Made by a program: the position numbers and the translations under genes. The notes beneath the pieces are model-generated. The model had not been told where the DNA came from. It saw nothing but the letters and a program-made list of their open reading frames with translations, and searched no databases. From Gammaproteobacteria bacterium (GTDB lineage Bacteria > Pseudomonadota > Gammaproteobacteria > JBCCGL01), in assembly GCA_965277715.1 (NCBI GenBank), contig OZ255836.1:3648001-3712000 (forward strand): DNA of 64,000 nucleotides, in the 5' to 3' direction. This document shows, in pieces, positions 3,642 to 37,434 of this stretch; the first letter of the stretch is position 1; every line of letters starts with the position of its first letter.

Positions 3642-3816
3642 CCTAAATTCCGCAGTTGAATCTACTGCGAGCACCTAATGCACAGAATCTAAAGCGCTTT
3701 AACCAGCATTTCAGCTTCACCTGTAGAATCACGACAGGATGGCTAAAATGCGGGTAAAAACACTTCATCTTCAGCACCTTAGACGCCCTCGCTACGATTC
3801 AACTGCGGAATTTAGG
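3642..3816. mobile_element. 175-bp MITE-like element, copy 1
   Basis: Terminal inverted repeats cctaaattccgcagttgaatc / gattcaactgcggaatttagg; near-identical copy at 41499-41673; no transposase. Confidence 0.85.
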
Positions 3817-4951
3817 TTTGCCCGTCTTGTCCGTCATGGTACTGGGGGCTTAGCGTCTGTACGGCTTCCACCATCGCGGCGACGTGATCTGGGTTGATAC
3901 GCGGGTGAATGCCGTGGCCTAAATTAAATATGTGTCCACTGCCCCGGCCATAGCTGGCGAGTACTTTGCCTACTTCACGGTGGATTGTCTGTGGGTCGGC
4001 ATAGAGGACATTGGGGTCGAGATTGCCTTGTAATGCCACCCGGTCACCGGTGAGTTCACGCGCACGGGCGAGATCGGTGGTCCAGTCGACACCGAGTGCA
4101 TCACAACCTGTGTCCGCCATTGCCTGTAACCATTGCCCGCCATTTTTAGTGAATAACACAACAGGCACCTGGCGACCCTCATTGTGCCGGTTGAGTTGTT
4201 CAATAATGCGTTGCATATAATTCAATGAAAAATCGCGGTAGTTCTGTGGCGACAGCACACCGCCCCAGGTATCAAAAATCATCACTGCCTGCGCCCCTGC
4301 GGATATTTGTGCGTTTAGGTAGGCAGCGACGGTGTCGCTCAATTTCTCCAGTAGCGTATGCAGACAGTCGGCCTGGTTAAACAACATGGATTTAATCTTT
4401 GCGAATTCACGGCTGGACTGGCCTTCCACCATATAGGTTGCCAATGTCCAGGGGCTGCCGGAAAAGCCAATTAGTGGCACGCTGCCGTTGAGTGCGGTCC
4501 GAATGGTGCGTATTGCCTCCATCACGTAAGCTAAATCGGCATTGGGGTCTATTTTAGGCAGCTTATCGATATCGCTGCGGTTGCTCAGCCGTGTCTTAAA
4601 GCGCGGCCCTTCGCCTTCAGAAAAGTATAGCCCCAGCCCCATTGCATCCGGGATGGTGAGAATATCTGAAAACAAAATTGCCGCATCCAGCGCAAAGCGT
4701 GCCAGTGGTTGTAAGGTGACTTTGCAGGCCAGTTCCGGGGATTTGCACAGTGTCATAAAATCGCCCGCGTCGGCCCGGGTGGCGCGGTACTCAGGCAGAT
4801 AGCGGCCTGCCTGGCGCATAATCCATACGGGTGTACGGTCGACGGGCTGGCGCAGCATTGCACGCAGTAAACGGTCGTTTTTCAGGTCGTTTTTTACATT
4901 TTCCACTAAACGGCTCATATTAGGTTCGTTTGATTTCCTAGACTCATACAT
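3812..4951 (-). CDS. hemE: Uroporphyrinogen decarboxylase (start may be further downstream)
   Basis: [15 protein letters not shown] signature and C-terminal IFNLGHG. Confidence 0.96.
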
Positions 4952-7409: not shown

Positions 7410-8420
7410 ATGAAAGTCCTTGGTATTGAATCATCCTGTGATGAAACAGGTGTTGCTGTTTACGATTACCACGCCGGGTTGCTGGCCCATCAACTATACA
7501 GCCAGGTTGAAATGCACGCCGAATACGGAGGGGTCGTGCCTGAGCTGGCCTCGCGTGATCATGTGCGCAAGTTATTACCACTAATCCGTGAAACCTTAAG
7601 CGCTGCATCGTTGACACTCGACGACCTTGACGGCATAGCCTATACCAGTGGCCCAGGATTGGCCGGTGCGTTGCTGGTGGGTGCTGCCACAGGGCGGTCG
7701 TTGGCCTGGGCGTTGCGTTTGCCCGCCATAGGTGTTCACCATTTGGAGGGGCACCTACTGGCACCAATGTTGGATGCAGCGCCACAGTTTCCCTTTGTGT
7801 GTCTGTTGGTTTCAGGTGGTCATACACAGCTTATTCAGGTGGATCGGATTGGTGACTACCGGTTGCTGGGCAGTAGCCTGGATGATGCAGTCGGTGAAGC
7901 TTTCGATAAAACAGCGCAGCTTTTAGGTTTGGGTTATCCAGGTGGCCCGGCGCTGGCGAAGCTCGCCGAGTCGGGGCGGCCCGGTGTGTTCCGGTTTCCA
8001 CGACCCATGACTGACCGGGCAGGGTTGGACATGAGTTTTAGTGGTTTAAAAACGTTTGCGATCACCACTTACCGGAAATCTGGCCCGGATGACGCCGCCA
8101 ATATTGCCTGGGCGTTCCAGGATGCAGTTGTCGATACTCTGCTAATAAAAACGCGACGGGCGCTGGAGCAAACGGGCATTAAGCAACTGGTGGTTGCCGG
8201 AGGTGTCGGGGCCAATCAATGCCTGCGCGAGCGCTTTTCTCATGCGTTCAAAAAACAAAGTGTGCGGGTTAACTACCCGCGTATGGCATTTTGCACCGAC
8301 AATGGTGCGATGATTGCACTGGCTGGCTGCATTCGCCTGCAAGCGGGTGAAACAGCGTCTTTGGAAGTGGGGATTAGACCGCGTTGGCCTATGCAGGAAG
8401 TTCAACCATTGCCAGCGTAA
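7410..8420 (+). CDS. tsaD: tRNA N6-threonylcarbamoyltransferase TsaD
   Basis: [37 protein letters not shown]. Confidence 0.97.
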
Positions 8421-20137: not shown

Positions 20138-21961
20138 TCAGGCAATAAAACCACCCGATTGTCGCCGCCATAATTCTGCATAGAGTCCCTCTGTATTTGC
20201 AAGTGCCTGGTGTGTACCCTGCTGGATGATTTTTCCCTGTTCGATGACGATCAGTCGATCGAGTGCAGAAATTGTCGATAGCCGGTGGGCAATGGCGATA
20301 ACGGTCTTGCCTTGCATCAATTGCATTAAATTTTCCTGAATGGCGGCTTCGACCTCTGAATCCAGCGCGGAGGTGGCTTCATCCAGCACCAGGATCGGTG
20401 CATCTTTCAAAAACATGCGGGCAATGGCGATACGTTGACGCTGGCCACCGGATAATTTGACACCACGCTCGCCAACGTGGGCGTCATAACCTGCCCGACC
20501 ACTCATATCGCCAAGGCCGGGAATAAAGGTGTGGGCATTGGCGCGCCTGGCGGCCTCGATAATTTGCTCACGTGTCGCCTGTTGTTTACCGTAGGCGATA
20601 TTATCGGCGACTGAGCGGTGCAGCAGAGAGGTATCCTGGGTGACTACACCGATATTGGCACGCAATGAGTCCTGGCTGATATGTGCAATATCCTGCCCAT
20701 CGATCAGTATTCTGCCGCCTTCAAGATCGAACAGGCGCAGCAGCACGTTCATTAATGTGGTTTTACCCGAGCCTGAACGCCCGACAATACCCACTTTTTC
20801 ACCGGGCCTGATGTCGAGACTTAAATCATCGATAACCCCGCCCTGTTTGCCGTAATGGAAACGGATGTTTTCAAAGGTAATACGGCCCTGGGTTACTTTG
20901 AGGTCGCTGGCGTTATCAATATCGGTGACGGTTTGTACCTTGGCGAGGGTGCCCATGCCATCCCGGGCCATGCCGAGGTTTTCAAATAAGGCAGACATTT
21001 CCCACATAATCCAATGCGCCATACCCTGCAACCGCAGTACCAGACCAATGGCCACGGCAATACCCCCTATACTGGCCACGCCGTTTATCCATGAGGCTAT
21101 CGCCGCGAAGCCAACGCCAAACAGGAGCAGTTGGTTGAGTATATCGACAGAGACGCCCAGCTGGGTCGACAGACGCATCATGCGGTGTACCGTGAGCATA
21201 AACCCCTCCATGCTGTCTTTTGCGTAGCGCTCTTCACGCCCGGCGTGGGCGAACAGCTTTACCGTCATAATATTGGTATAACTATCGACTACACGACCTG
21301 TCATGGTGGAGCGCGCTTCAGCTTGCTCGGCGGATACTTTGCCCAGGCGCGGCAGAAAATAACAGAGCAGCAGGCTGTACATTATCAGCCAGGCAAAAAA
21401 GGGCAATGTCATCCAGAAGTCGAAGGTGCCTACTAAGATCAACGCACCAATAAAATAAACACCGACGTAAACCAACACATCGATCACCTTCATAATTGCT
21501 TCGCGCACGCCGAGCGCGGTTTGCATCACTTTGGTCGCAACGCGCCCTGCGAATTCATCCTGGTAAAAGCCAAAGCTTTGACGCAATAGGTAGCGATGCG
21601 CCAGCCAGCGAATACGCATTGGGTAGTTGCCGATAACGGTTTGATGCATTATCAGCGAATGCAGTGCCGCCACCAGTGGTAATGCCAACAACACGACAGC
21701 GCTTATCCCGATTAATTTGTCACCTTCTTTTTCAAGGAAGGTGTTTCTATCGGCGTCACCTAACCAATCGACAAGGCTGCCGAGAAAACCAAATAGCGCC
21801 ACTTCCAGCGCAGAAAAAGTGGCTACCAGAAATGCCATGGCAAATAACCACGGCCACACTCCCTGGGTGTAGTGTGAACAGAATGCGAAGAGTGTTGCCG
21901 GTGGGCGCGTTGGCGTTTGTGCTGGAAAGGGCGCCAGCAATTTTTCAAAGAAGGCGAACAT
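20138..21961 (-). CDS. ABC exporter, fused permease/ATPase
   Basis: TM domain plus GRSGSGKT, LSGGQRQR and LDEATSALD. Confidence 0.93.
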   Translation of the reverse strand: MFAFFEKLLAPFPAQTPTRPPATLFAFCSHYTQGVWPWLFAMAFLVATFSALEVALFGFLGSLVDWLGDADRNTFLEKEGDKLIGISAVVLLALPLVAALHSLIMHQTVIGNYPMRIRWLAHRYLLRQSFGFYQDEFAGRVATKVMQTALGVREAIMKVIDVLVYVGVYFIGALILVGTFDFWMTLPFFAWLIMYSLLLCYFLPRLGKVSAEQAEARSTMTGRVVDSYTNIMTVKLFAHAGREERYAKDSMEGFMLTVHRMMRLSTQLGVSVDILNQLLLFGVGFAAIASWINGVASIGGIAVAIGLVLRLQGMAHWIMWEMSALFENLGMARDGMGTLAKVQTVTDIDNASDLKVTQGRITFENIRFHYGKQGGVIDDLSLDIRPGEKVGIVGRSGSGKTTLMNVLLRLFDLEGGRILIDGQDIAHISQDSLRANIGVVTQDTSLLHRSVADNIAYGKQQATREQIIEAARRANAHTFIPGLGDMSGRAGYDAHVGERGVKLSGGQRQRIAIARMFLKDAPILVLDEATSALDSEVEAAIQENLMQLMQGKTVIAIAHRLSTISALDRLIVIEQGKIIQQGTHQALANTEGLYAELWRRQSGGFIA

Positions 21962-24394: not shown

Positions 24395-25282
24395 GTGGGG
24401 TCTGGACACACCGGATTAAACGTGGATAACTCACCCACAAATTACAAGGTAAAAACCGGCTGCTTTTTGACGGTATTGCTGGTCGCTGTCGTGTTACTCG
24501 GTTTTACACAACAACTCGATCAGCGTGCAGGTAAACCCGTCGATGACGCTTTTGAGCGGGCGCTGGTCACCTTTGCCGTGGTGCGCAGTATTAATGCGGT
24601 TGTATCGGTTGTGCAGGGTACAGAGTTGGCTATTGAGCCAGCCGGGGTTGGTGTCATTCTGACACCAGGGCAGATATTTGATCCGGTTAATGACCTTATT
24701 GAGCGATTTTCCTGGATTATGCTGGCGGCGAGCACTTCATTGGGTGCGCAAAAAGTGTTGATAGCGATCGGTGCTGCGTCGGTTTTTCAGGCGGCGTTAA
24801 TGGTGGCGGCGATGCTGTTGTTGGTATTGATTTGGCGTCCGGGCTGGTTAAGTGGCCGCTGGCGGGGCATTGCGTTACGGCTGGCGGTGTTGATTGTGTT
24901 TGTGCGTTTTGCCGTGCCGGTGATAGTGCTGGCTAACCAGGCGGTATACGATGCCTTTCTGGCGGATCGTTACCAGGTGTCTTATACGGCACTCGAAGTC
25001 ACACGTGACGAGGCCGAAGCGCTTCAGCAGGCGGAAAAAGACCCGGCTACCAGTGCGCAGAATAAGGGGCTGCTGGGTCGACTTGGGCACTGGTATGACC
25101 GTACAGCATTGCGCTTTGATGTCGATGCGCGTATTGACCGTTACAAACAGCAGTTTGCCCAGGCCAGTGAGCATATTATCCATTTGATTGTGGTGTTTAT
25201 GTTGCAAACTGTGGTGTTTCCATTGTTGTTTTTGTGGCTTGGGTTGCGTTTGTTGCGTAGTGTTGTGAGGGGTGGTGTTTGA
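24395..25282 (+). CDS. Hypothetical membrane protein
   Basis: Long ORF with several TM segments; no family recognised; start uncertain. Confidence 0.7.
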   Translation: MGSGHTGLNVDNSPTNYKVKTGCFLTVLLVAVVLLGFTQQLDQRAGKPVDDAFERALVTFAVVRSINAVVSVVQGTELAIEPAGVGVILTPGQIFDPVNDLIERFSWIMLAASTSLGAQKVLIAIGAASVFQAALMVAAMLLLVLIWRPGWLSGRWRGIALRLAVLIVFVRFAVPVIVLANQAVYDAFLADRYQVSYTALEVTRDEAEALQQAEKDPATSAQNKGLLGRLGHWYDRTALRFDVDARIDRYKQQFAQASEHIIHLIVVFMLQTVVFPLLFLWLGLRLLRSVVRGGV

Positions 25283-27549: not shown

Positions 27550-28173
27550 ATGGCATTTGAGCTTTGGCTGGCTTATGCCATCGCCGCGACAATTATTATT
27601 GTGATCCCCGGGCCGACCATTTTGCTCGTTATCACCCAATCGTTAATTCACGGTAAAGCGGCCACTCTGCCGTTGGTGTTGGGGGTGATGTTAGGTGATG
27701 CGCTGGCACTGCTTCTGTCGCTGTTTGGGTTGGGTGCGATACTCGCCACCTCGGCATTTTTCTTTACCATTATTAAATGGGTAGGGGCGGGGTATCTTGT
27801 TTACCTGGGCATCAGTCTTTGGCGTAGCCCCAGTGTAATTGTCACCAGCGACGAGACGGTTGAGTACAAAGGTGCCTTTTCCCTGTTTATGCGTGTTTTT
27901 ATCGTGACAACGTTTAATCCAAAGGGGATTGTTTTCTTTATCGCCTTTTTGCCGCAGTTTGTCGATCCCGCGCTCGATGTTGTAGCGCAATTGGCGTTGC
28001 TCGGCGTCACCTTTGTCGTTATCGGTACGTTGAATGCGGCGATGTACGCTATTTTTTCAGGTGCCCTAAAACGCTTTCTGCAACGTGAAAAAGCCCGGCG
28101 GTGGTTTAATCGTTGCGGTGGAACGGCTCTGGTTGGTGCGGGTGTGTTTACTGCTGTGGCGCAGCGAGCTTAA
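27550..28173 (+). CDS. LysE/RhtB family translocator
   Basis: IPGPT, KWVGAGYLVYLG, NPKGIVFF. Confidence 0.92.
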   Translation: MAFELWLAYAIAATIIIVIPGPTILLVITQSLIHGKAATLPLVLGVMLGDALALLLSLFGLGAILATSAFFFTIIKWVGAGYLVYLGISLWRSPSVIVTSDETVEYKGAFSLFMRVFIVTTFNPKGIVFFIAFLPQFVDPALDVVAQLALLGVTFVVIGTLNAAMYAIFSGALKRFLQREKARRWFNRCGGTALVGAGVFTAVAQRA

Positions 28174-28199: not shown

Positions 28200-29126
28200 T
28201 CAATTGAACGTTGATGGCGTATTGGTGTAATGCGCAGTGAAACGGTCATAATTGGCGCCAATTAATACCAGCACAATGCCCAAGAAATGCACCCAGGTGA
28301 ATTGCTCCCCCAGAAATAAAACCGCCAATAACGAAGCGATGACCGGGATAAAGTTATAACAGATACCACCCATTGCAGGCCCGCCCAGGCGAATACCCTT
28401 GAGCCATAAAATCCCAGAAAAAATTGAGGGAAACACCGCCACATACGCCAACACACTGACGGTGTTTTGATTGAGCGGCCAACCGTTGCTGCCGGTATAC
28501 ACATCGTAGAGGTAGAACGGCACGATACCAACCCAGCCTATAACGATATTGACGAATAAAAAACCGCGAATAGAAAAGTGCCCCGGCAGGCGTTTTAAAT
28601 ACACAGAATAAAACGCAAATACAATAATCGACGTGAGAATCAAACCATCACCGGGAGTTAGCGAGGCCAGCACACCCACCCCAACCTTACCACCCGCGAC
28701 AATCACCAGCGCCACACCACTCAATGAAACCAGCAGACCAGTCAATTTGTTTTTGCCAATTTTCTCCACGCCGATGATCCACGACAGCAAAAAAATAAAC
28801 ACGGGTAATGATGCGGAAATGATGCCCACCTTGGTCGCACTGATCCACTGCATCGACCAGTATTGAAAGGTGTTGTAGAGGGTGATGCTGAAAAATGCCA
28901 GCAGGCCGATCAACCGCCAGTGTTTGCGGTAAAACGCCCGTTCGCGCCACACAATCGGCAGTGCAAACGGTGCCAGCAATACCCCGGCCAGTGTCCACCG
29001 CCAGAACGACAGTGAAAATGGCGGTATAGTGCTGACAATCGACTTGCCAACCACCGTATTGCCCGCCCAAAACGACACGGCAATTAACAGGCAGAAAAAC
29101 GCCAGCCGTGGATTTGTTGTATTCAC
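28200..29126 (-). CDS. DMT/EamA family transporter
   Basis: About ten TM helices; FWAGNTVVGK, FWRW, LFLGE. Confidence 0.9.
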   Translation of the reverse strand: MNTTNPRLAFFCLLIAVSFWAGNTVVGKSIVSTIPPFSLSFWRWTLAGVLLAPFALPIVWRERAFYRKHWRLIGLLAFFSITLYNTFQYWSMQWISATKVGIISASLPVFIFLLSWIIGVEKIGKNKLTGLLVSLSGVALVIVAGGKVGVGVLASLTPGDGLILTSIIVFAFYSVYLKRLPGHFSIRGFLFVNIVIGWVGIVPFYLYDVYTGSNGWPLNQNTVSVLAYVAVFPSIFSGILWLKGIRLGGPAMGGICYNFIPVIASLLAVLFLGEQFTWVHFLGIVLVLIGANYDRFTAHYTNTPSTFN

Positions 29127-29157
29127 GGTGTGAAAGAGGGGTGGGCGATTGGATAGT

Positions 29158-29505
29158 TTACTTTGCGGCGACTACGCCCACTTCAACCAGCAGGTCCGGT
29201 GTTGCCAGACGGGCTTCAATACAGGCGCGGGCGGGAGCGTGACCCTCGGGTACCCAGGCGTTCCAGACTTTGTTCATCTCGTCAAAATGCCCGATGTTTG
29301 CCAGCCAGATTTGCGCAGACAGCAAATGTGTTTTATCGCTACCGGCTTCTGCCAGGAGTGCATCGACTTTATCCAGCACCTGCTGGGTTTGTATACTCAC
29401 ATTGGCATTGGGGTCACTGGCAACCTGACCGGCGAGGTAAATCGTATCGCCGTGGATAACTATTTGGCTCATGCGTGCGTTGGTGTGGTGACGGGTGATG
29501 GTCAT
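29158..29505 (-). CDS. RidA family protein
   Basis: IYLAGQVA, FDEMNKVWNAW...PARACI, LVEV. Confidence 0.92.
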   Translation of the reverse strand: MTITRHHTNARMSQIVIHGDTIYLAGQVASDPNANVSIQTQQVLDKVDALLAEAGSDKTHLLSAQIWLANIGHFDEMNKVWNAWVPEGHAPARACIEARLATPDLLVEVGVVAAK

Positions 29506-29650
29506 AAGGGGGACTCCAGGGGGGGCGGATTAGAAAACGCATAGACTACAGGGAGTGAGGCAATTTATCGATCCATTCATGTTACGACTAAACAGATAGC
29601 TCACAAGCCGCACCGACATATTTTCATGCCGGGTCAATAACAATGTTCAC

Positions 29651-29680
29651 TTTACCGATTCACGCAATTATTATTATAAT
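29651..29680 (+). promoter_or_regulatory. Putative sigma70 promoter of the lasso cluster
   Basis: TATAAT at 29675-29680 with a weak -35 (tttacc) 18 nt upstream; ends 34 nt before the RRE start. Confidence 0.4.
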
Positions 29681-29714
29681 CGTTTAGTTTTTCACCAGTA
29701 TCGTCAAATTAACT

Positions 29715-29987
29715 ATGCTTCCTGGCCACATCAAAATCCCACCCCATGTATTACTCCAGGCTTTTGACGAAGAAACTGAAGCAGTTCTGCTTAATGTAGA
29801 GACCGAACATTACTATAGCTTGAATGAAGTAGCCTTACGGTGCTGGCGTTTGTTGGAGAACGACGGCAGCGTGGCGAACATAACCCAACAGCTACTGGCC
29901 GAATATGAAGTAGAAGAGTCATTATTGCGAGAGGATATCAAAAAAATTATCTCCCATTGGTTGGAAACCGGCCTGGTTGTCAACTGA
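29715..29987 (+). CDS. PqqD-family RiPP recognition element (lasso B1)
   Basis: 90 aa; EAVLLNVETEHYYSLNEVALRCWRLL...LLAEYEVEESLLREDI...GLV, the typical RRE pattern. Confidence 0.92.
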   Translation: MLPGHIKIPPHVLLQAFDEETEAVLLNVETEHYYSLNEVALRCWRLLENDGSVANITQQLLAEYEVEESLLREDIKKIISHWLETGLVVN

Positions 29988-30455
29988 ATGTCTGGCGTTG
30001 ATTTGATAAGGGCAAAGTGGCGTGATCTGCAAATTGCCTGTCAGATTCTGTTGGTGTTGCCGTTGGCGGTTTTGTTATTGAAGCTCAGAGGCTTTAAGTC
30101 GGCCTTTCACATCTTCGAGTGGTTGGCCGTCACATGCCCTGGTGGTGGCCATAATGATACGGTTTATATCGACCGCGCCAGCACAGGGATCCGTTGGTTC
30201 AAACGGCATTTCCCCTTGGGCAACTGTCTGTCACGTTCGTTAACGCTGTGGTTTCTGTTGCATCGGCGCAATATCTCCTCCGTAATCATTATCGGCACCA
30301 GAAGAATCAAGGGAGTATTCGCTGCCCATGCCTGGGTGGAATATCAGAACAAACCGTTGAACGCCCACAACAAAGTCAGGCAAAGATACGCCGCCTATGA
30401 TTTTCCATTTTCGCCAGCAAACCTCGTCACTGCTACATGGAAGGAGGATAGATGA
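29988..30455 (+). CDS. Lasso peptide leader peptidase (B2, transglutaminase-like)
   Basis: NCLSRSL catalytic Cys and FAAHAWVE catalytic His; lies between RRE and cyclase. Confidence 0.93.
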   Translation: MSGVDLIRAKWRDLQIACQILLVLPLAVLLLKLRGFKSAFHIFEWLAVTCPGGGHNDTVYIDRASTGIRWFKRHFPLGNCLSRSLTLWFLLHRRNISSVIIIGTRRIKGVFAAHAWVEYQNKPLNAHNKVRQRYAAYDFPFSPANLVTATWKEDR

Positions 30456-32338
30456 TCTTTGGTCTGTTTCGTACCGACAAGCAGCCGGTAACAACGGTAG
30501 ATCTGGCATCCATCCGGTTGGCAATGGCGTGTTTTCCCCATCACTGCGCGGAGGACTGGCGGCATGCATCCATCGGCTTTGGTCGTTTATTGCGTTACAA
30601 CACCCCGGAATCGATTTATGAAAATCTGCCCTGTGTAAGTAATTCGGGGCGCTATGTACTGGTAGCCGATGCCCGGCTTGACAACCGGGATGAGCTTTTC
30701 GATTTGCTGTCTGTTCCCTTACCCGAACGTAAGTTCATGCCAGATAGTAGTTTAATACTTAAAGCCTATGAGCGATGGGAGGAAGAGTGTCCCCACCACC
30801 TGCTGGGCGACTGGTCATTCGCACTTTGGGATCACCACCTACAGCAACTGTTCATTGCGCGTGATCAGATCGGAGCAGGCGCGCTGTACTATTACCAAAA
30901 CGCGCATTTTATCGTTTTTTCCAGCGCGCTCAAGGGTGTCATGGCTTTGCCTGGCGTGCCTTCACAGCTTAACGAGTTAGCGGTGGCACAACTTGCAGCG
31001 GGCCAACGGCGCGACGCCCAAACGTTTTATAAAGATGTTTACCAATTGCCCGCAGGCCAATGGATGGCGGTCAACGCCCAACGGACCGTTCGCCAATACC
31101 ACTGGCGGCCCCAGGATATACAGCCGGTGACCTTCGCCAACGATCAGGATTATCTGGATGCTTTTCTCGAAATATACACCCAGGCCGTGTCTTGCCGTCT
31201 GCGCAGCCACGGTGAAGTGGCGGTAACCCTAAGTGGCGGGCTAGATTCCGGCTCGGTGGCGTCACTGGCGGCCAGGCAGAGGGCGCAATCCGGCGAACGG
31301 CTGAGAGCAATCTCCTGGCGGCCGGCCGACGGGGCTAATCTGGAAGGCGTGCCGACCAACCGCAGGGCGGATGAAACATCACTGATAGAAGCTACTAGCC
31401 GCCACGCAGGCAATATTGACGTGAGCTATATTCAACACGCCTATTTCACCCCACTGTCTGCCATTGATTATATGCTGGACACGCTACTCCAACCCCCCTT
31501 TACCTTTTCCGCCTGGTATTGGTTTATGTCCTTGCTGAAAATGGCTCAACAGCAAAATATCGCTACACTGCTTACCGGCCAGGCGGGCAACTTTACCGTG
31601 TCCTGGCAGGGCAACCGCGACAGTTACCTATTGGGCCTGTTACGCAGTGGTCGGTTTGGCACATTGGCGCACGAAGTCCGTTTATGGGCGCAACACCAAC
31701 GAAGGCCACTTTGGTGTAGCATGGCCAGCCAGCTTATCCGCCCGTTGTTTGCACCGTTGCATCGCCCTCATGGGCGCGAAGGGCGGAGGTTCATTCGAGC
31801 AGAAGCCGCCGCGCCGGTGCTGCGGACGCAAGCGCCCTACGATGCCGAATTAATGGCCAGGCAAAAGCAGGCCGCCGAACCCCTGTGCAACCTGATAGCG
31901 ATGTTCCAGTCGGGCAAGCTATCTTTGTCCCCAGAACTGGGGAGGTGCTTCGGCGTTGATGAACGCGCTCCAGTGCTGGATAAACGCCTGGTAGCGTTCT
32001 GTTTCGGCATTCCCCAGCGGCAATACACCAGAGACGGGCAGGAAAAATTGCTGCTTCGCCAATCCATGCACGGTATTATGCCCGATGAGGTATTGTATAA
32101 CCGTCACCGTGGGTTAATAGCGGGTGATCTGGACAACTGGATGTGGACAAACCGAGCGGAAATAGTGGATATTCTCCAGCACCTGAAAAACTCCCCCACA
32201 GTACGGCACTGGCTGGATTTAGGGCTTTTAAATGATGCGCTCCAGCACTGTGAGATCAGAGGTGTTGAGCATTTACACCAGGGAGTTATCACGCTGCGGG
32301 GTATTCTAATCGGTCGTTTTCTTATGCAGTTTGACTAA
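30452..32338 (+). CDS. Lasso peptide cyclase (asparagine synthetase-like, C protein)
   Basis: ADARLDNRDEL, LGDWSFALWD, LSGGLDS ATP-binding motif; lacks the N-terminal Cys of true AsnB. Confidence 0.92.
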   Translation: MIFGLFRTDKQPVTTVDLASIRLAMACFPHHCAEDWRHASIGFGRLLRYNTPESIYENLPCVSNSGRYVLVADARLDNRDELFDLLSVPLPERKFMPDSSLILKAYERWEEECPHHLLGDWSFALWDHHLQQLFIARDQIGAGALYYYQNAHFIVFSSALKGVMALPGVPSQLNELAVAQLAAGQRRDAQTFYKDVYQLPAGQWMAVNAQRTVRQYHWRPQDIQPVTFANDQDYLDAFLEIYTQAVSCRLRSHGEVAVTLSGGLDSGSVASLAARQRAQSGERLRAISWRPADGANLEGVPTNRRADETSLIEATSRHAGNIDVSYIQHAYFTPLSAIDYMLDTLLQPPFTFSAWYWFMSLLKMAQQQNIATLLTGQAGNFTVSWQGNRDSYLLGLLRSGRFGTLAHEVRLWAQHQRRPLWCSMASQLIRPLFAPLHRPHGREGRRFIRAEAAAPVLRTQAPYDAELMARQKQAAEPLCNLIAMFQSGKLSLSPELGRCFGVDERAPVLDKRLVAFCFGIPQRQYTRDGQEKLLLRQSMHGIMPDEVLYNRHRGLIAGDLDNWMWTNRAEIVDILQHLKNSPTVRHWLDLGLLNDALQHCEIRGVEHLHQGVITLRGILIGRFLMQFD

Positions 32339-32395
32339 TGGAAAGAATACCATTAAATTTGCAACCGACAACGTTAACTCACTTAACAGGTAACT

Positions 32396-32548
32396 ATGAT
32401 GCAAGAAAAAACGCCAACACTAAACGCCACCCCTTCCGAAAAGAAAGCCTACCAAAGCCCGATAATGACGGATTTCGGTACGGTGAAGCAATATACTCAA
32501 GGTACAAACGGGGGTAATACAAATGCTGAGGGTAACGGCAATTCCTGA
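32396..32548 (+). CDS. Lasso peptide precursor (50 aa)
   Basis: Manual translation MMQEKTPTLNATPSEKKAYQSPIMTDFGTVKQYTQ-GTNGGNTNAEGNGNS; leader motif YxxPxxxxxGxxxxxT(-2); AGG 5 nt before ATG; directly after the cyclase. Confidence 0.88.
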   Translation: MMQEKTPTLNATPSEKKAYQSPIMTDFGTVKQYTQGTNGGNTNAEGNGNS

Positions 32549-32564
32549 GTAAACACTTGACACC

Positions 32565-33476
32565 TTGGCGTGTAAGCCAAATAGTTGTTTTTCCACGGGT
32601 GTGGCGAAACGGGGGGTTGAACGTTTTTTTCTGGTAGTAGGTATGCACCGCAGCGGAACCAGTTGTCTTGCTGGATGCCTGGCGAGAAGCGGTATGTATT
32701 TAGGTCCAGCTCCAGGTTCCAACCAATTTAACGCACCAGGCTATGGTGAGCTTCGTTCAGTAAAATGGCTGCATGACCAGATATTGGCTTTAAACAGAGG
32801 TGGGTGGTATAAACCGCCTGCCAATGTGGTAGTGCATGACTATCATCAAGCCGCTATGCGCCATATAGTCAACCAGCTTGCACGGAGACGCCTCTGTGGC
32901 GTAAAAGACCCTCGAACGCTGCTCATGCTTGATGCTTGGGAAACGATTATTGGTTCTCGGTGCCACCTTATCGGCACTTTTCGCCATCCTCTCGCGGTGG
33001 CGGCTTCTCTTAACCAGCGTAACGGTATTCCAGTTGAACAAGGTCTCACGCTTTGGCGGCACTATAATCAGCGGTTGGTAGAGCGCCACCAAAAAACCTC
33101 TTTTCCGCTAGTGGAGTTCAACTTGCACGATGTCAATGCCTATTGTGGCGTAGTTACCGAAGTTGCCACGCAATCTGGGCTTAAACCCCACTTTATGCAA
33201 TTGCGCCGTTTCGTTCGCCAACCCCTGGAGCACCATAAACTGAAAAAACAAGACCTGCCTGTGGATTGTGCTGAAACTTACGCCTATTTGATGGATAACC
33301 GTAAAGGTGGTTCGCCTGAGAGGGTTGCCGCACCTTCATTCCCTGGCGATAGACGTTGGCAGTCTGTTCAAGCGTATGGCAAAGAAGTAATTTTTAGAAA
33401 CCGCGACTTTTTGACGGCTCTATCCGAGCGCCTGCGACCGAAATACACCAAGGGAACTGCCCATGTCACAACTTGA
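32565..33476 (+). CDS. Sulfotransferase-family protein 1 (start uncertain, possibly GTG 32601)
   Basis: VVGMHRSGTSCLA PAPS-binding loop, GVKDPR, FRHPLAVAASL. Confidence 0.82.
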   Translation: MACKPNSCFSTGVAKRGVERFFLVVGMHRSGTSCLAGCLARSGMYLGPAPGSNQFNAPGYGELRSVKWLHDQILALNRGGWYKPPANVVVHDYHQAAMRHIVNQLARRRLCGVKDPRTLLMLDAWETIIGSRCHLIGTFRHPLAVAASLNQRNGIPVEQGLTLWRHYNQRLVERHQKTSFPLVEFNLHDVNAYCGVVTEVATQSGLKPHFMQLRRFVRQPLEHHKLKKQDLPVDCAETYAYLMDNRKGGSPERVAAPSFPGDRRWQSVQAYGKEVIFRNRDFLTALSERLRPKYTKGTAHVTT

Positions 33477-34269
33477 GGTGATCAAACGCGGCGAACGCTT
33501 TCTTTGCTCTGGCATCAAACCCAGAATCGCGACAGGTGAGTTGCGCAAGCAGTTCTCTGTGGCCGAACCATTCCCTCATTTAGTGCTGGACGACTTTCTT
33601 CCGACTGAGTTTATTCGTGCTATTGTCGATAATTTTCCTGCCAAAAGCGAAGCCAGCGTCTACCATACCGTCCCTCACCAGCAAGGCAAACGCGGTTACC
33701 GGCCACAGAATTTGGGTGACAACCCGTGCCGACATTATTTGCCACTCTTTAATTCACCACCCGTAGTAAAGTTTCTGGAAACGGTAACGGGGATAAAGCC
33801 CTTGCTTATCGACCCTTCTTTTCTGGGCGGAGGTCTGCATGAAATAGACCCCGGCGGTAAACTGGCCGTTCACTCAGACTTTAACCTGCATAAAGAGCTC
33901 AATCTGCAAAGACGCATTAATATGTTGATTTACCTCAACGAATCCTGGGAGGCGAACTACGCAGGCAATCTGGAGCTGTGGGACGGAGAATTGAGCCAGT
34001 GCGTAAAATCAATAGCACCCATTTTTAACCGTTGCGTAATCTTCGCCACAGACCTGAAGTCATTTCACGGGCATCCAGAAACCTTGTCCTGCCCTGAACA
34101 TATGACGCGCCGGTCAATCGCGCTATATTACTATACGGCTATTGAACCGGGAGACAAACTCAATACCACCAGCGTCTGGAGACCGCGGCCTGGTAGCCAC
34201 GATCTTGTGCCATCCGGCAGAAAATCGGTTGCCCGGCGGGTGTTTAACAAGCTTAAGCGTTGGAATTAA
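33463..34269 (+). CDS. 2OG-Fe(II) oxygenase (prolyl-4-hydroxylase-like)
   Basis: PFPHLVLDDFL, HSD...H facial triad (VHSDFN, SFHGHP), RRSIALYYY. Confidence 0.9.
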   Translation: MSQLEVIKRGERFLCSGIKPRIATGELRKQFSVAEPFPHLVLDDFLPTEFIRAIVDNFPAKSEASVYHTVPHQQGKRGYRPQNLGDNPCRHYLPLFNSPPVVKFLETVTGIKPLLIDPSFLGGGLHEIDPGGKLAVHSDFNLHKELNLQRRINMLIYLNESWEANYAGNLELWDGELSQCVKSIAPIFNRCVIFATDLKSFHGHPETLSCPEHMTRRSIALYYYTAIEPGDKLNTTSVWRPRPGSHDLVPSGRKSVARRVFNKLKRWN

Positions 34270-35126
34270 ACTTGCCTGGATTAACGGCATTTCCAGGCCG
34301 TATCATATCGTACCTTCAAAGCTGGAGGCTGGCGTTTACCACTGACCTCAGCCGCCTGCAATACTATCTTATGCTCGTCGGCAACCCAAGCTCGGGAACT
34401 ACGTTAACACGCACGTTACTGAATGCGCACCCAGAAATCGTAGTAAGTGTTGAATTGAATATCCTGAAAGAGATCGAAGCGAACAAAAGCTGGCGTTCGA
34501 TAGTGGGGCGTATTTTGTATAACGCACAGCGCTTTGACAACAACCCTTTTTGGACCGGCATCAACTATCGGATAGCAAAACTCTCAGGGCGAGGTAAAAA
34601 GCCGTTGCGGGTTATTGGTGACAAACGCGCGGCAGATACGGCGGCATATCTGGCGCGAAATCCCGCGCTGTTATTCGCATTACACCAGTGGTCACCGGTA
34701 CCGGTGCGGTTTATCCACTGCGTGCGTCATCCCTGTGACGTAATCGCCACCAGAATCCGCCGTGGCAAGCTGGACCGCTACGGTAGGTTGGACGCGACGT
34801 ATAATCTGCACAAGTATGTCGAGCTGGAAAAAATCGCTGCGCAACTGTTTTCCGTATTGGGTGAACGCCGTTGTCTGCGGTTCTACCATGAAGAGCTAAT
34901 TGAGGATCCTATACCGGTATTGCAACAGTTGACCACTTTTCTGGGCGTGCAGGCAGGACAGGCCTATTTTGACGCCTGCCGCTCCCTTATCTATAAAAAG
35001 CCCAATAAAAGCCGTTTACAGCGACAATGGACTACGCAGGAGAGGCAAATGATCGAACGTGAAACCGCAAGTATTCCTCACCTGGCGCGTTATTTTGACA
35101 ATGGGCACCTATCCTTTGATGCATAA
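34260..35126 (+). CDS. Sulfotransferase-family protein 2
   Basis: VGNPSSGTTLTRTLLNAHPEI, VIGDK, VRHPCDVI, YHEELIEDP. Confidence 0.85.
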   Translation: MELNLPGLTAFPGRIISYLQSWRLAFTTDLSRLQYYLMLVGNPSSGTTLTRTLLNAHPEIVVSVELNILKEIEANKSWRSIVGRILYNAQRFDNNPFWTGINYRIAKLSGRGKKPLRVIGDKRAADTAAYLARNPALLFALHQWSPVPVRFIHCVRHPCDVIATRIRRGKLDRYGRLDATYNLHKYVELEKIAAQLFSVLGERRCLRFYHEELIEDPIPVLQQLTTFLGVQAGQAYFDACRSLIYKKPNKSRLQRQWTTQERQMIERETASIPHLARYFDNGHLSFDA

Positions 35127-36204
35127 ACCAACCAAGCGCGCCCCGCTATTTGAAACGCTACAATTCACTATCATCTACACCCCCGGTACAGTTTATTTTC
35201 TTACCTGGATGGTGACCAGTCTGCTTAAGCATTCGCCCTGTTCGTTCCGTCTAGTGTCTAACGGGTGCATGGTGCCAGAGCAACGCTACCTGGAACATTT
35301 TTGCCGCCGGGATCAACGCCTGAGTTTTCTGGCGCTCTCTACCGATCACTACCTACCCCACGGTGAGATACTGGATTATCTGCAAGCCATCCATACCGAC
35401 GAATGGTTCTGCTTTTTGGACTCGGATATGTTTGCTACAGCGGACTTTCTGGCAGAGTTTACTGTCGATATCCCCCGCTACGCAGCCGTATTCTCTGGTG
35501 CGCCAGTCTGGGCGACCGCCTCAGATCAGATACTGCCGGAAAATTTCAAAATCATCAGCGGTCATCATACCGATAGTGACCGGCAACATTGCCTGGGCTG
35601 CACTTATTTTGCCGTATACAACAACGCCCTGCTGGGTGAACTGCGGTCCCGTACCGGGCTTAGCTTTAAAACTGCGTATTGGAACGACATCGCGGAACAA
35701 CATCAGCAAAAATTAATTGCCCTCGGCCTGAAAAAGAAATTCTACGATACTGCACGGCTACTGAATCTGATGCTGGTCTACGAAGGGCACGCACTGTGCT
35801 ATCAGGATTTACCTTCGCTGACCCATATAGGCGGGTTTAGTTATATCCCCGGCAGGGAATTCTCAAGTAGTTTGGCAGGTCGAATATACAGGGCTTTGTC
35901 GATAGTATTTCATCGTAACGTTTTGGTGAAAAAACTGGAAAAATGGCGTCGGCGTCGCAGTTACCGACACCTGCAACCTATCGATAACGAAGAATTGGAG
36001 GCGGTTATTGCGCAACGGATCGAGCAGCGCGACCCTGTGCGCAATTATTTTTACAGCTTGTTTAAAGCCTTGCCGACAAAATCACCTTTGCCACCATTAC
36101 CCAGGGTAAAAAACCGGGAAGTTGACCAACGTCTACGCACAGCGGCGTCTGCGGTACAGCTTCTATACCAGGAATACGAGACCGAGGGTCAGAAGAAAAC
36201 ATGA
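35119..36204 (+). CDS. Glycosyltransferase-like (GT-A) protein
   Basis: LVSNG followed by FCFLDSDMF (DxD motif); start overlaps the upstream stop; family assignment tentative. Confidence 0.55.
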   Translation: MHKPTKRAPLFETLQFTIIYTPGTVYFLTWMVTSLLKHSPCSFRLVSNGCMVPEQRYLEHFCRRDQRLSFLALSTDHYLPHGEILDYLQAIHTDEWFCFLDSDMFATADFLAEFTVDIPRYAAVFSGAPVWATASDQILPENFKIISGHHTDSDRQHCLGCTYFAVYNNALLGELRSRTGLSFKTAYWNDIAEQHQQKLIALGLKKKFYDTARLLNLMLVYEGHALCYQDLPSLTHIGGFSYIPGREFSSSLAGRIYRALSIVFHRNVLVKKLEKWRRRRSYRHLQPIDNEELEAVIAQRIEQRDPVRNYFYSLFKALPTKSPLPPLPRVKNREVDQRLRTAASAVQLLYQEYETEGQKKT

Positions 36205-37220
36205 CAACACCAATTCACCGTTATACGGTTTACGGCATGCCCATTGAGGCCAATGCGCCAGTGCGGCATCTCAACACCAGCGATGAACCGGCTGTTGCGA
36301 CAAACCATGACATATTGGCACAACCGTTACAAATTACCTACCAGGGTTTGACGACGCCTCAGCTAACACCACCGGATGGTGAAATTTTATATAGCTCACC
36401 GGCTCAAACCAAAGAGGGTCGCGGCTTTTTTGAAGTGTGGAAACACGCCGGGGGGTTGTGGTTGTGTCATCACAACCACAACACAGATGACAGTGGTGTA
36501 CGCGCAGCTTATTTTGATGTCGACCCAAGTGGGCATACGCTGGATATAAGCTGGACTGCCGCGTTTAATGTCGACGATTTATCCGGGTATTTACTCGGCC
36601 CTGTACTCGGTTGCATTTTACGCACCCGGAGAGTAACACCACTACATGCTTCGGTATTAAATATCGGCGAAAAAGCGATCATCGTTACGGGTGCGAAAGG
36701 GGCTGGCAAATCAACCCTTGCGGCATTTTTCGCACGCAATGGCCACCGTGTTCTGGCGGACGATATTGCGTCACTGGTACGAAGAGAAAACAGCTATTGG
36801 GTGCATCCCGGCTACCCACACCTGCGTCTTTGGCGGGAAACGCTGGATGAATTGGGTTGTCGTGATGCACTACCGCCGGTATCAGTCGGCATTGACAAGC
36901 GATATCTGGCTTTGACCGGGTCAGCGGATCAAGCCACCGCAGGATTCCAGCGTAAAGCATTGCCGCTTGCCGGCATTTTCGTATTGGAAAATTTCAATGC
37001 AAGCTGTTCGGTTTCAATAACCCCTCTAGTACGTGCCGAAGGCCTTATAAATCTGGTCAGAAATACCTATGCTGATTACCTGTTGGATGCCACAGGGAGA
37101 GGCCGGGATTTTGATTTTCTGACTGGATTGCTGGCGGATACTGCCGTCTATAAAGTCTCCCGACCTCGGGATCTGGCCCTTCTGCCCGAGGTGATTGAGG
37201 CTATCGTCGGCATCTGCTAA
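36201..37220 (+). CDS. HPr kinase-like serine kinase (lasso peptide kinase type)
   Basis: PLHAS, Walker A GAKGAGKST, VLADD, HPGYPHLRLW; last gene of the lasso operon. Confidence 0.85.
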   Translation: MTTPIHRYTVYGMPIEANAPVRHLNTSDEPAVATNHDILAQPLQITYQGLTTPQLTPPDGEILYSSPAQTKEGRGFFEVWKHAGGLWLCHHNHNTDDSGVRAAYFDVDPSGHTLDISWTAAFNVDDLSGYLLGPVLGCILRTRRVTPLHASVLNIGEKAIIVTGAKGAGKSTLAAFFARNGHRVLADDIASLVRRENSYWVHPGYPHLRLWRETLDELGCRDALPPVSVGIDKRYLALTGSADQATAGFQRKALPLAGIFVLENFNASCSVSITPLVRAEGLINLVRNTYADYLLDATGRGRDFDFLTGLLADTAVYKVSRPRDLALLPEVIEAIVGIC

Positions 37221-37271
37221 ATGAGGTGTTTTTTTGTGATAGAGGTCGTTCCACCCTATCAGCCCCTTCAA

Positions 37272-37434
37272 CCTAGAAAACGCAGTTGAGTGCGAAAAAG
37301 CTGTGCAAGGCATTGGTGTGCATGGGACCGTTAAAAAATGCGTGGTCACCTTATTGGCGATGAGCAATTTTTACACTTTTCCAGGTGCGCCAAGGGCTTG
37401 TGCAGACTTTCGTGAGGCAACTGCGGAATTTAGG
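37272..37434. mobile_element. Diverged MITE-like element sharing ends with the 175-bp family
   Basis: Ends cctagaaaacgcagttga / caactgcggaatttagg; internal dyad ctgtgcaaggcattggtgtgca / tgcgccaagggcttgtgcag. Confidence 0.65.

Follow-up and report, generated by a model that had tools for sequence, protein, structure and literature searches.

The precursor gene and its cluster

The 64,000-nucleotide stretch of gammaproteobacterial contig OZ255836.1 analysed here (the window, always taken at its full length) contains, at positions 32396-32548 (+), an ATG-to-TGA open reading frame (ORF) of 50 codons, which translates to 50 amino acids (aa) and a stop and resembles the precursor peptide of a lasso-type RiPP (ribosomally synthesized peptide with post-translational modifications). 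It sits in a series of genes that all lie on the plus strand, in the order B1, B2, cyclase, precursor, sulfotransferase-like protein, 2-oxoglutarate (2OG) oxygenase, sulfotransferase, unknown protein of 381 aa and HPr-kinase-like protein (Table 1). Each of the genes by which a lasso cluster is recognized (B1, B2 and an ATP-dependent cyclase) is present, and at the level of its enzymes the cluster has every property of a lasso system; the precursor departs from such systems in one defining feature, an acidic residue at core position 7, 8 or 9. The complete B1, B2 and cyclase genes beside it, together with its leader, bear out the identification of the ORF as a lasso precursor in a preliminary description of this locus, whose 50-aa translation is identical to ours. 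That description called the gene unannotated, which holds at most for the ORF list from which it worked: a predicted protein with exactly this sequence had already been recorded (one member sequence, two contigs). At 50 aa, the ORF falls under the default 60-aa ORF listing length.

A word search with the window peptide alone returned no match except itself. A hidden Markov model (HMM) of the family, built from 94 related precursors with the window peptide left out, was run on every stop-to-stop frame of 20 aa or longer in the window (1,890 frames) and matched the precursor frame alone (E 4.5e-15, 52 bits; runner-up E 6), with the caveat that the 94 relatives were gathered using profiles that contained the window peptide. 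Residues 16-40 also match NCBIfam NF033528 (lasso_cyano) at 20.1 bits (E 4.5e-4), under the curated cut-off of 33. The DNA of the cluster occurs in other sequencing data: for positions 29700-37300, 68-100% of the sampled words were present in runs from four studies, several of them labelled sponge metagenome. Contigs from three studies besides the likely source (X4, X5 and X6) cover the whole precursor ORF with zero indels, and their sole difference within it is a synonymous change in the Thr6 codon (32413 G>A), while around the gene X4 and X5 differ from the window by 5 differences per kb. Because the same peptide is found in contigs of three other studies, it is not a sequencing error, and mis-sequencing of the precursor is excluded. 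A 59-aa ATG ORF in another frame (32338-32517, +), which begins at the final base of the cyclase stop codon, overlaps the precursor gene; it has no match to the family HMM and was taken as spurious.

Several of the enzymes score below curated family thresholds. B1 reaches 45.8 bits against NCBIfam lasso_PqqD_Bac, below the cut-off of 80, and the cyclase 351 bits against NF033535 (lass_lactam_cya), below the cut-off of 525, and is therefore a divergent member; its SGGLDS stretch (residues 261-266) is invariant across a 40-sequence alignment. In B2, we read Cys80 and His114, both present in the translation, as the putative catalytic residues. The HPr-kinase homologue has the His, the P-loop Lys and Ser and the Asp-Asp of lasso kinases: His149, Gly164, Gly167, Gly169, Lys170, Ser171, Asp187 and Asp188 fit the lasso-kinase motif given in PMC10368454, and the protein is 30% identical (E 2e-22) to a kinase-like gene at another cyclase locus, L005.

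Leader and core of the peptide

Tyr19, Pro22, Gly28 and Thr34 follow the spacing Y-x2-P-x5-G-x5-T-x, so that the leader pattern given in the preliminary description (YxxPxxxxxGxxxxxTx) is found residue for residue. According to PMC10368454, the YxxPxL of lasso leaders invariably occupies -17 to -12, with Thr at -2, and the window leader has the same arrangement except for Met in place of Leu at -12. Cleavage after Thr34-Gln35 would leave the 15-residue core of that description, made up exclusively of Gly, Thr, Asn, Ala, Glu and Ser, with Glu45, at position 10, as its single acidic residue; positions 7, 8 and 9 hold neither Asp nor Glu. As in kinase-tailored lasso peptides, the precursor ends in Ser (Ser50). 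The tail after Glu45 consists of five residues, Gly, Asn and Ser only, with no bulky residue and no Cys, and equals the minimum stated for LassoPred (a loop of 3 plus a tail of 2).

The rule from which the core departs, likewise invoked in the preliminary description, is stated in several papers: natural lasso peptides have their acceptor at positions 7-9 (PMC10368454, PMC6993621, PMC8498205), in one wording "all characterized, naturally occurring" ones (bioRxiv 10.1101/2020.11.25.399105). Lasso structures are known with rings of 7, 8 and 9 aa, according to a 2026 JACS review (PMC13352647), and LassoPred treats Asp or Glu at 7-9 as a hard condition, together with at least 5 residues after the acceptor (PMC12214591).

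Acceptor positions among related precursors

An alignment-based word search with the window peptide and those of two loci holding related cyclases (L003 and L005) returned nine Sphingomonadales-type precursors (P0123-P0131), three of which, from Parasphingorhabdus and Sphingopyxis, are named "lasso RiPP family leader peptide-containing protein" by NCBI. A 12-sequence profile run over 1.84 billion cluster representatives gave 92 matches at E <=0.001, comprising 5 long proteins and 87 peptides of 35-97 aa. Family peptides were parsed by a fixed rule, in which an aromatic residue, two further residues and Pro are followed by 13 leader residues, placing the aromatic residue at -17 and, at -2, Thr or a different small or aliphatic residue. 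Of the 96 short peptides, 95 fit this rule; that of L005 is one residue short.

Among these 95 peptides, the first Asp or Glu at position 6 or later stood at 8 in 30 and at 9 in 27, at 7 in just 2, at 11 and 13 in 1 each, and nowhere in 5; it stood at position 10 in 29, a share that is inflated in that the collecting profile was itself built from acceptor-10 peptides. Positions 7-9 lacked an acid in 36 of the 95 altogether. By the last 17 residues of their leaders, the 29 acceptor-10 peptides group into 19 clusters, and the profile-search representatives taken by themselves include 22 (of 87 short matches, the window peptide among them). The window peptide is thus no isolated case but belongs to a widespread group that shares an acid at position 10, and the suggestion in the preliminary description that homologues with an ordinary acid at 7-9 might expose this copy as degenerate or mis-sequenced fails on the same 29 relatives and on the independent contigs with the same peptide.

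The residues around the predicted cut are conserved irrespective of where the acid stands. In the acceptor-10 group, position -2 is Thr in 29 of 29 and position -1 Gln in 26 of 29, and the first core residue is small in 26 of 29 (Ser in 15, Gly in 5, Ala in 4, Thr in 2), as it is in 28 of 30 acceptor-8 and 25 of 27 acceptor-9 peptides; core position 2 varies across the family, with Asn, Val, Phe, Arg and Asp among its residues. Directly after the acid, 19 of the 29 acceptor-10 peptides have FG, GG or LG, the pairs that are also commonest in the acceptor-9 group, and the context of the acid is therefore kept whatever the ring length. With the cut site and the acid context both conserved, it is the spacing between them that varies, from 8 to 10. 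Behind one and the same leader stands a 14-aa core with Asp10 in some peptides (e.g., P0123-P0130) and, in P0131, a 13-aa core with Asp9; the four-residue ending is identical. The leaders nearest to that of the window carry their acceptors at 9 (P0158), 8/9 (P0202), 8 (P0217) and 10 (P0174), and ring length therefore varies among close kin: over 20 residues, the window leader is identical to that of P0158 (Asp9) at 13 and to that of P0174, the nearest acceptor-10 leader, at 12. A terminal Ser, as in the window peptide, is found in 20 of the 29 acceptor-10 relatives.

Some matches stand apart. P0208, P0177 and P0211 have a canonical leader and a core without any Asp or Glu; that of P0208 is a 20-residue Gly/Asn repeat ending in Ser, which resembles the window tail, and P0211, with just 7 residues past the cut, may be a truncated peptide. 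P0133 (382 aa) carries five tandem lasso-leader-like motifs (Tyr-x-x-Pro-x-Leu-x-Asp-His-Gly...Thr) with conserved spacers and a different C-terminal domain, and P0135 and P0140 look like unrelated repeat proteins matched by chance.

Precursors beside related cyclases

As a less biased estimate of the acceptor-10 share than the precursor-profile sample, we used precursors found next to relatives of the window cyclase. Its homologues at E <=1e-20 numbered 1,009, mostly metagenomic, and the best non-self match was 51% identical. The sample consisted of 40 loci, 37 of them metagenomic (24-41% cyclase identity, among the matches listed), 1 from a genome and 2 from plasmids; the nearest cyclases (P0003, 51%; P0005, 45%; P0004, 43% identity) and the precursors beside them lie outside it.

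A precursor was recognized in 22 of the 40 loci, and, by canonical leader spacing, most had an ordinary acceptor: Asp8 (L002, with three peptides, L004, L015 and L039), Glu8 (L016), Asp9 (L009, L010, L012, L020, L021-L025, L027 and L028), Glu9 (L040), or Glu7 or Asp9 (L029). The acceptor of L017 was unclear, and the L005 precursor has both Asp8 and Asp10. Two of the 22 loci (L003 and L011), in addition to the window, have an acid only at position 10.

At L003, a related cyclase is accompanied by an acceptor-10 precursor, whose 14-residue core has Ser as its last residue, and the ORF after the cyclase is 54% identical over 57 aa to the sulfotransferase-like protein of the window (32565-33476). 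L005 combines a kinase, B1, B2, cyclase and precursor with an ABC (ATP-binding cassette) transporter and a nucleotidyltransferase. The L011 precursor (7948-8085, +) has a different kind of leader, shared with L009, L010 and L012 and marked by Trp at -15, with a core that starts with Leu, a first acid at position 6 or later that is Asp10, and then a 15-residue tail. L002 has three tandem precursor genes after one cyclase (3012-4070, +), all with Asp8 and with Ala, Asn and Phe as first core residues. No precursor was recognized at L001, a distant locus from the scan of genome contigs (33% cyclase identity). Plasmid records matching the cyclase numbered 15 (24-32% identity), and the two that were inspected had the ordinary acceptors of L039 and L040.

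A predicted ten-residue ring and its alternatives

Taken together, these observations led us to a reading that, in our estimate, is evenly balanced between right and wrong: the ORF would encode the precursor (A) of a kinase-tailored lasso-type RiPP, with a Gly1-Glu10 macrolactam and a five-residue tail ending in phosphoserine. B1 would bind the Tyr19-x-x-Pro22 motif of the leader, the HPr-kinase-like enzyme would phosphorylate the C-terminal Ser50 of the linear precursor, and B2 would cut after Thr34-Gln35. The cyclase would then adenylate the side chain of Glu45 and join it to the amine of Gly36, closing a ten-residue macrolactam whose five-residue tail carries the phosphoserine, and the two sulfotransferase-family proteins, the 2OG oxygenase and the 381-aa protein could add further groups. 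The product may be a branched-cyclic lariat, or its tail may be held by a bulky C-terminal group. The dehydrated 15-mer has a computed monoisotopic mass of 1344.529 Da (+79.966 per phosphate; linear core 1362.540 Da), compared with 1072.417 Da for a 12-mer with a 7-residue ring after shifted cleavage and 1287.508 Da for a 14-mer with a 9-residue ring after cleavage offset by one residue, the three cleavage readings being 57 to 272 Da apart. A ten-residue ring lies within reach of a lasso cyclase, as is evident from an engineered fusilassin variant with a 10-residue ring (PMC8498205; bioRxiv 10.1101/2020.11.25.399105), which is the only ten-residue lasso ring, natural or otherwise, mentioned in the literature searched.

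Several points weigh against a Gly1-Glu10 ring. A cut one residue later throughout the family would convert acceptors at 8, 9 and 10 into the accepted 7, 8 and 9, and the window peptide itself has a second Thr-x site; leader position -12 is Met24 where the published motif has Leu; the acceptor-10 share of the family is inflated by the way in which the sample was collected, and such precursors are few beside related cyclases; and the cyclase, B1, the kinase and the precursor all score below NCBIfam curated cut-offs. A threaded lasso is also doubtful for a tail of five small residues with no steric plug. Zhu et al. (2016, FEBS Lett) are said to have treated proteobacterial kinase clusters and may already have defined the ring of the Sphingobium yanoikuyae peptide.

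Glu45 could instead be brought within the accepted range by moving the cut. If B2 took Thr37 as the -2 residue and cut after Asn38, the result would be a 12-residue core with a Gly1-Glu7 ring and the same five-residue tail, which we consider unlikely. The sequence does contain Thr37-Asn38-Gly39, with Glu45 becoming residue 7, and the 12-mer, with 5 residues past the ring, just satisfies the LassoPred minimum; yet Thr34-Gln35 stands exactly at the conserved Thr-Gln of the family, and the core of P0174 has no Thr at all, with Asp only at 4 and 10. The L011 peptide is equally ambiguous, its internal Thr-Asn-Gly offering a Gly1-Asp7 ring, but a second Thr(-2) site giving a ring of 7-9 occurs in only 3 of the 29 acceptor-10 peptides, and cleavage at such a site therefore cannot explain the group. 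Rings of 7 aa have been structurally characterized (PMC13352647), whereas the shift would move Tyr19 to -20, away from -17, its place in 95 of 96 family peptides and a constant according to PMC10368454. A quite unlikely variant extends the displacement to the whole family, with B2 cutting one residue later (after Thr-Gln-x) to yield rings of 7, 8 and 9, that of the window being Thr1-Glu9. In one stroke the 30, 27 and 29 peptides at 8, 9 and 10 would fall on the accepted 7, 8 and 9, and just two would drop to 6 (P0160 and P0219), both with other acids available; the small residue conserved directly after Thr-Gln would, however, no longer be the N-terminus, and the residue replacing it is far more variable. 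One third of the family would then carry 7-residue rings, the rarest size known among natural lasso peptides. The Thr would moreover stand at -3, in conflict with the Thr(-2) rule of PMC10368454.

It is very unlikely that no ring forms, either because the peptide is cleaved and tailored (phosphorylated, sulfated) without being cyclized or because the cluster is a silent relic. An acceptor outside 7-9, a tail too short and small for a classical lasso and the few family matches without a core acid (P0177, P0208 and P0211) would fit such an outcome, but all genes of the cluster are open with intact motifs, the position-10 acid is kept in a conserved context across 19 leader clusters, and contigs of three other studies encode an unchanged peptide, the ORF differing by a single synonymous substitution where its surroundings in X4 and X5 show 5 differences per kb. 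Transamidation onto Asn8 (Asn43), which does stand at position 8 and would give an 8-residue ring, has a practically negligible chance of being correct: a carboxamide cannot be adenylated, and the acceptor-10 group shows no conservation of Asn at position 8 (Ala in 7, Gly in 6, Asn in 5, Leu in 3, and others). We rejected Asn8 on chemistry, because the cyclase adenylates a carboxylate and not a carboxamide; lasso cyclases are asparagine-synthetase homologues that activate the side-chain carboxylate with ATP (bioRxiv 10.1101/2020.11.25.399105). Among the three options that the preliminary description had put forward, the ten-residue ring is thus the best supported, cleavage at the second Thr is a possibility particular to this sequence, and Asn8 is discarded.

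Returning to the ten-residue ring, a broader proposition, which we hold to be slightly more doubtful than probable, is that the natural cyclases of a widespread kinase-associated clade, taking in the window organism and Sphingomonadales, routinely close rings of this size; that the 7-9 rule is an artefact of peptide isolation and of mining tools that demand an acid at 7-9; and that the short-core products, which have 4-5 residues past the ring, a terminal Ser and no side-chain plug, are unthreaded lariats or are locked by a modification, namely a phosphate, sulfate or sugar placed on the C-terminal Ser before cyclization. If this were true, the ten-residue-ring products of some twenty related precursor clusters would be discarded by current mining and the ring-size limit of the lasso cyclase would need revising, and, for tails as short as these and made up of Gly, Asn and Ser, one would have to ask whether a post-translational group can stand in for a steric plug.

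Relationship to known lasso systems

Among the nearest counterparts is the kinase-type proteobacterial cluster of Sphingobium yanoikuyae ATCC 51230 (SyanA/SyanK), which is covered by two reviews (PMC8498205, PMC9266682) and the product of which the first of them calls "putative"; its kinase adds one or more phosphates to the precursor before the leader is removed. Like it, the window cluster is proteobacterial, with split B1 and B2, a cyclase, an HPr-kinase homologue and a precursor that ends in Ser; unlike it, the window cluster has an additional 2OG oxygenase, a second sulfotransferase and the 381-aa protein. The Sphingomonadales-type precursors P0123-P0131 probably belong to the SyanA/SyanK group. 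They have the leader spacing and a sulfotransferase beside the cyclase in common with the window, whose peptide is only 23-29% identical to them (leader and core) and differs in its Asn/Gly-rich core, in Glu rather than Asp as the acid and in a tail of five rather than four residues.

In both Firmicutes and Proteobacteria, HPr-kinase homologues act on the linear precursor, adding phosphate to its C-terminal Ser, in some cases repeatedly (PMC8498205, PMC9266682). This is the likeness to paeninodin and pseudomycoidin of Firmicutes, in which such a homologue phosphorylates the C-terminal Ser, as shown for paeninodin on the linear precursor (PMC8498205); for pseudomycoidin, the authors propose that a bulky group at the C-terminus contributes to keeping the tail inside the ring (PMC6993621). 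Both differ from the window peptide in their Ala1-Asp9 ring, long tails and leader of the Trp(-15) type (PMC6993621). BsfA/BsfK of Bradymonas sediminis resembles the window system in having YxxPxL at -17 to -12 and the kinase motif His/Gly-x-x-Gly-x-Gly-Lys-Ser/Asp-Asp, and B1 helps the kinase there (PMC10368454); its gene set is that of L005. BsfA differs in Ile at -2, a Gly1-Asp8 ring, phosphorylation at Ser3 and a C-terminal Asp (PMC10368454).

With the predicted window product, the engineered fusilassin variant shares a 10-residue macrolactam and a B1/B2/C system (PMC8498205; bioRxiv 10.1101/2020.11.25.399105). Its ring is artificial, having been produced in vitro with a mutated precursor, whereas the spacing of 10 in the window peptide is natural and recurs in its relatives. 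The variant is reportedly the work of DiCaprio et al. (2019).

Other features of the cluster and its surroundings

Table 1. Features of the predicted lasso-type cluster and adjacent genes (positions in the window)
Feature	Positions	Strand	Evidence or remarks
LysE gene	27550-28173	+	upstream of cluster
EamA transporter gene	28200-29126	-	upstream of cluster
Sigma-70-like promoter match upstream of B1	29651..29680	+	TTTACC, 18 nt, TATAAT; 10/12; consensus match only
B1, PqqD-like leader-recognition protein (RiPP recognition element, RRE), 90 aa	29715..29987	+	Pfam PqqD E 6.2e-18, above cut-off
B2, transglutaminase-like leader peptidase, 155 aa	29988..30455	+	NF033537 lasso_biosyn_B2 69.1 bits (cut-off 33); Pfam Transglut_core3 E 5e-15
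C, asparagine-synthetase-like lasso cyclase, 628 aa	30452..32338	+	Pfam Asn_synthase E 3.4e-33, GATase_7, above cut-offs
A, precursor peptide gene	32396..32548	+	50 aa plus stop; family HMM match; unchanged peptide in independent contigs
Leader, residues 1-35	32396..32500	+	Tyr19 (-17), Pro22 (-14), Met24 (-12), Gly28 (-8), Thr34 (-2), Gln35 (-1)
Predicted core, residues 36-50, 15 aa	32501..32545	+	Gly36 first, Ser50 last
Glu45 codon GAG, core position 10, predicted isopeptide acceptor	32528..32530	+	unchanged in X3-X6 contigs
Ser50 codon (core Ser15), C-terminal, predicted phosphorylation site	32543..32545	+	Ser-ending relatives; analogy with lasso kinases
Weak terminator-like hairpin then T-rich run, just 3' of precursor gene	32565..32580	+	5-bp stem; only a hint
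Sulfotransferase-like protein	32565..33476	+	Pfam Sulfotransfer_3 E 0.0078, below cut-off; listed from TTG 32565
2OG-Fe(II) oxygenase, 268 aa	33463..34269	+	Pfam 2OG-FeII_Oxy_3 E 4e-17
Sulfotransferase, 288 aa	34260..35126	+	Pfam Sulfotransfer_3 E 4.2e-14
381-aa protein, no family assigned	35059..36204	+	no relative in Pfam, NCBIfam or PDB
HPr-kinase-like peptide kinase, 339 aa	36201..37220	+	Pfam Hpr_kinase_C E 1.6e-6, NCBIfam HprK_rel_A E 3.2e-12, both below cut-off

The gene of the sulfotransferase-like protein may truly start at a GTG near 32601, and the second sulfotransferase is not a close paralogue of it. For the 381-aa protein, searches of Pfam at E <=5, of NCBIfam and of PDB sequences gave nothing meaningful, and it is unrelated to the NTP_transf_5 protein of L005. 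Its look-alikes by Atlas language model are mostly unnamed clusters; in one of these, 76% of the members bear Glycos_transf_2, which is no more than a lead. Its predicted fold, at a pLDDT (predicted local distance difference test) of 38, is unusable. The ORF overlaps the preceding gene by 68 bases (35059-35126), and its true start may be further downstream.

Sigma-70-like sites numbered 8 in 4 kb, compared with 3.9 +/- 2.1 in shuffles, which is no clear excess, and terminator-like sites showed no enrichment (4 compared with 4.1). No ABC exporter is adjacent to the cluster. About 8 kb upstream, beside ABC-2-type genes, is an MsbA/HlyB-like ABC exporter (20138-21961, -) that might be the one the cluster lacks, although nothing links the two. 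The remainder of the window holds Gram-negative proteobacterial housekeeping genes (MrcA, RNase G, YhdP, TldD, aa3 oxidase and citrate synthase), and two ORFs are without a family match, one of 131 aa between the EamA gene and B1 (29149-29544, +) and one of 295 aa at 24395-25282 (+).

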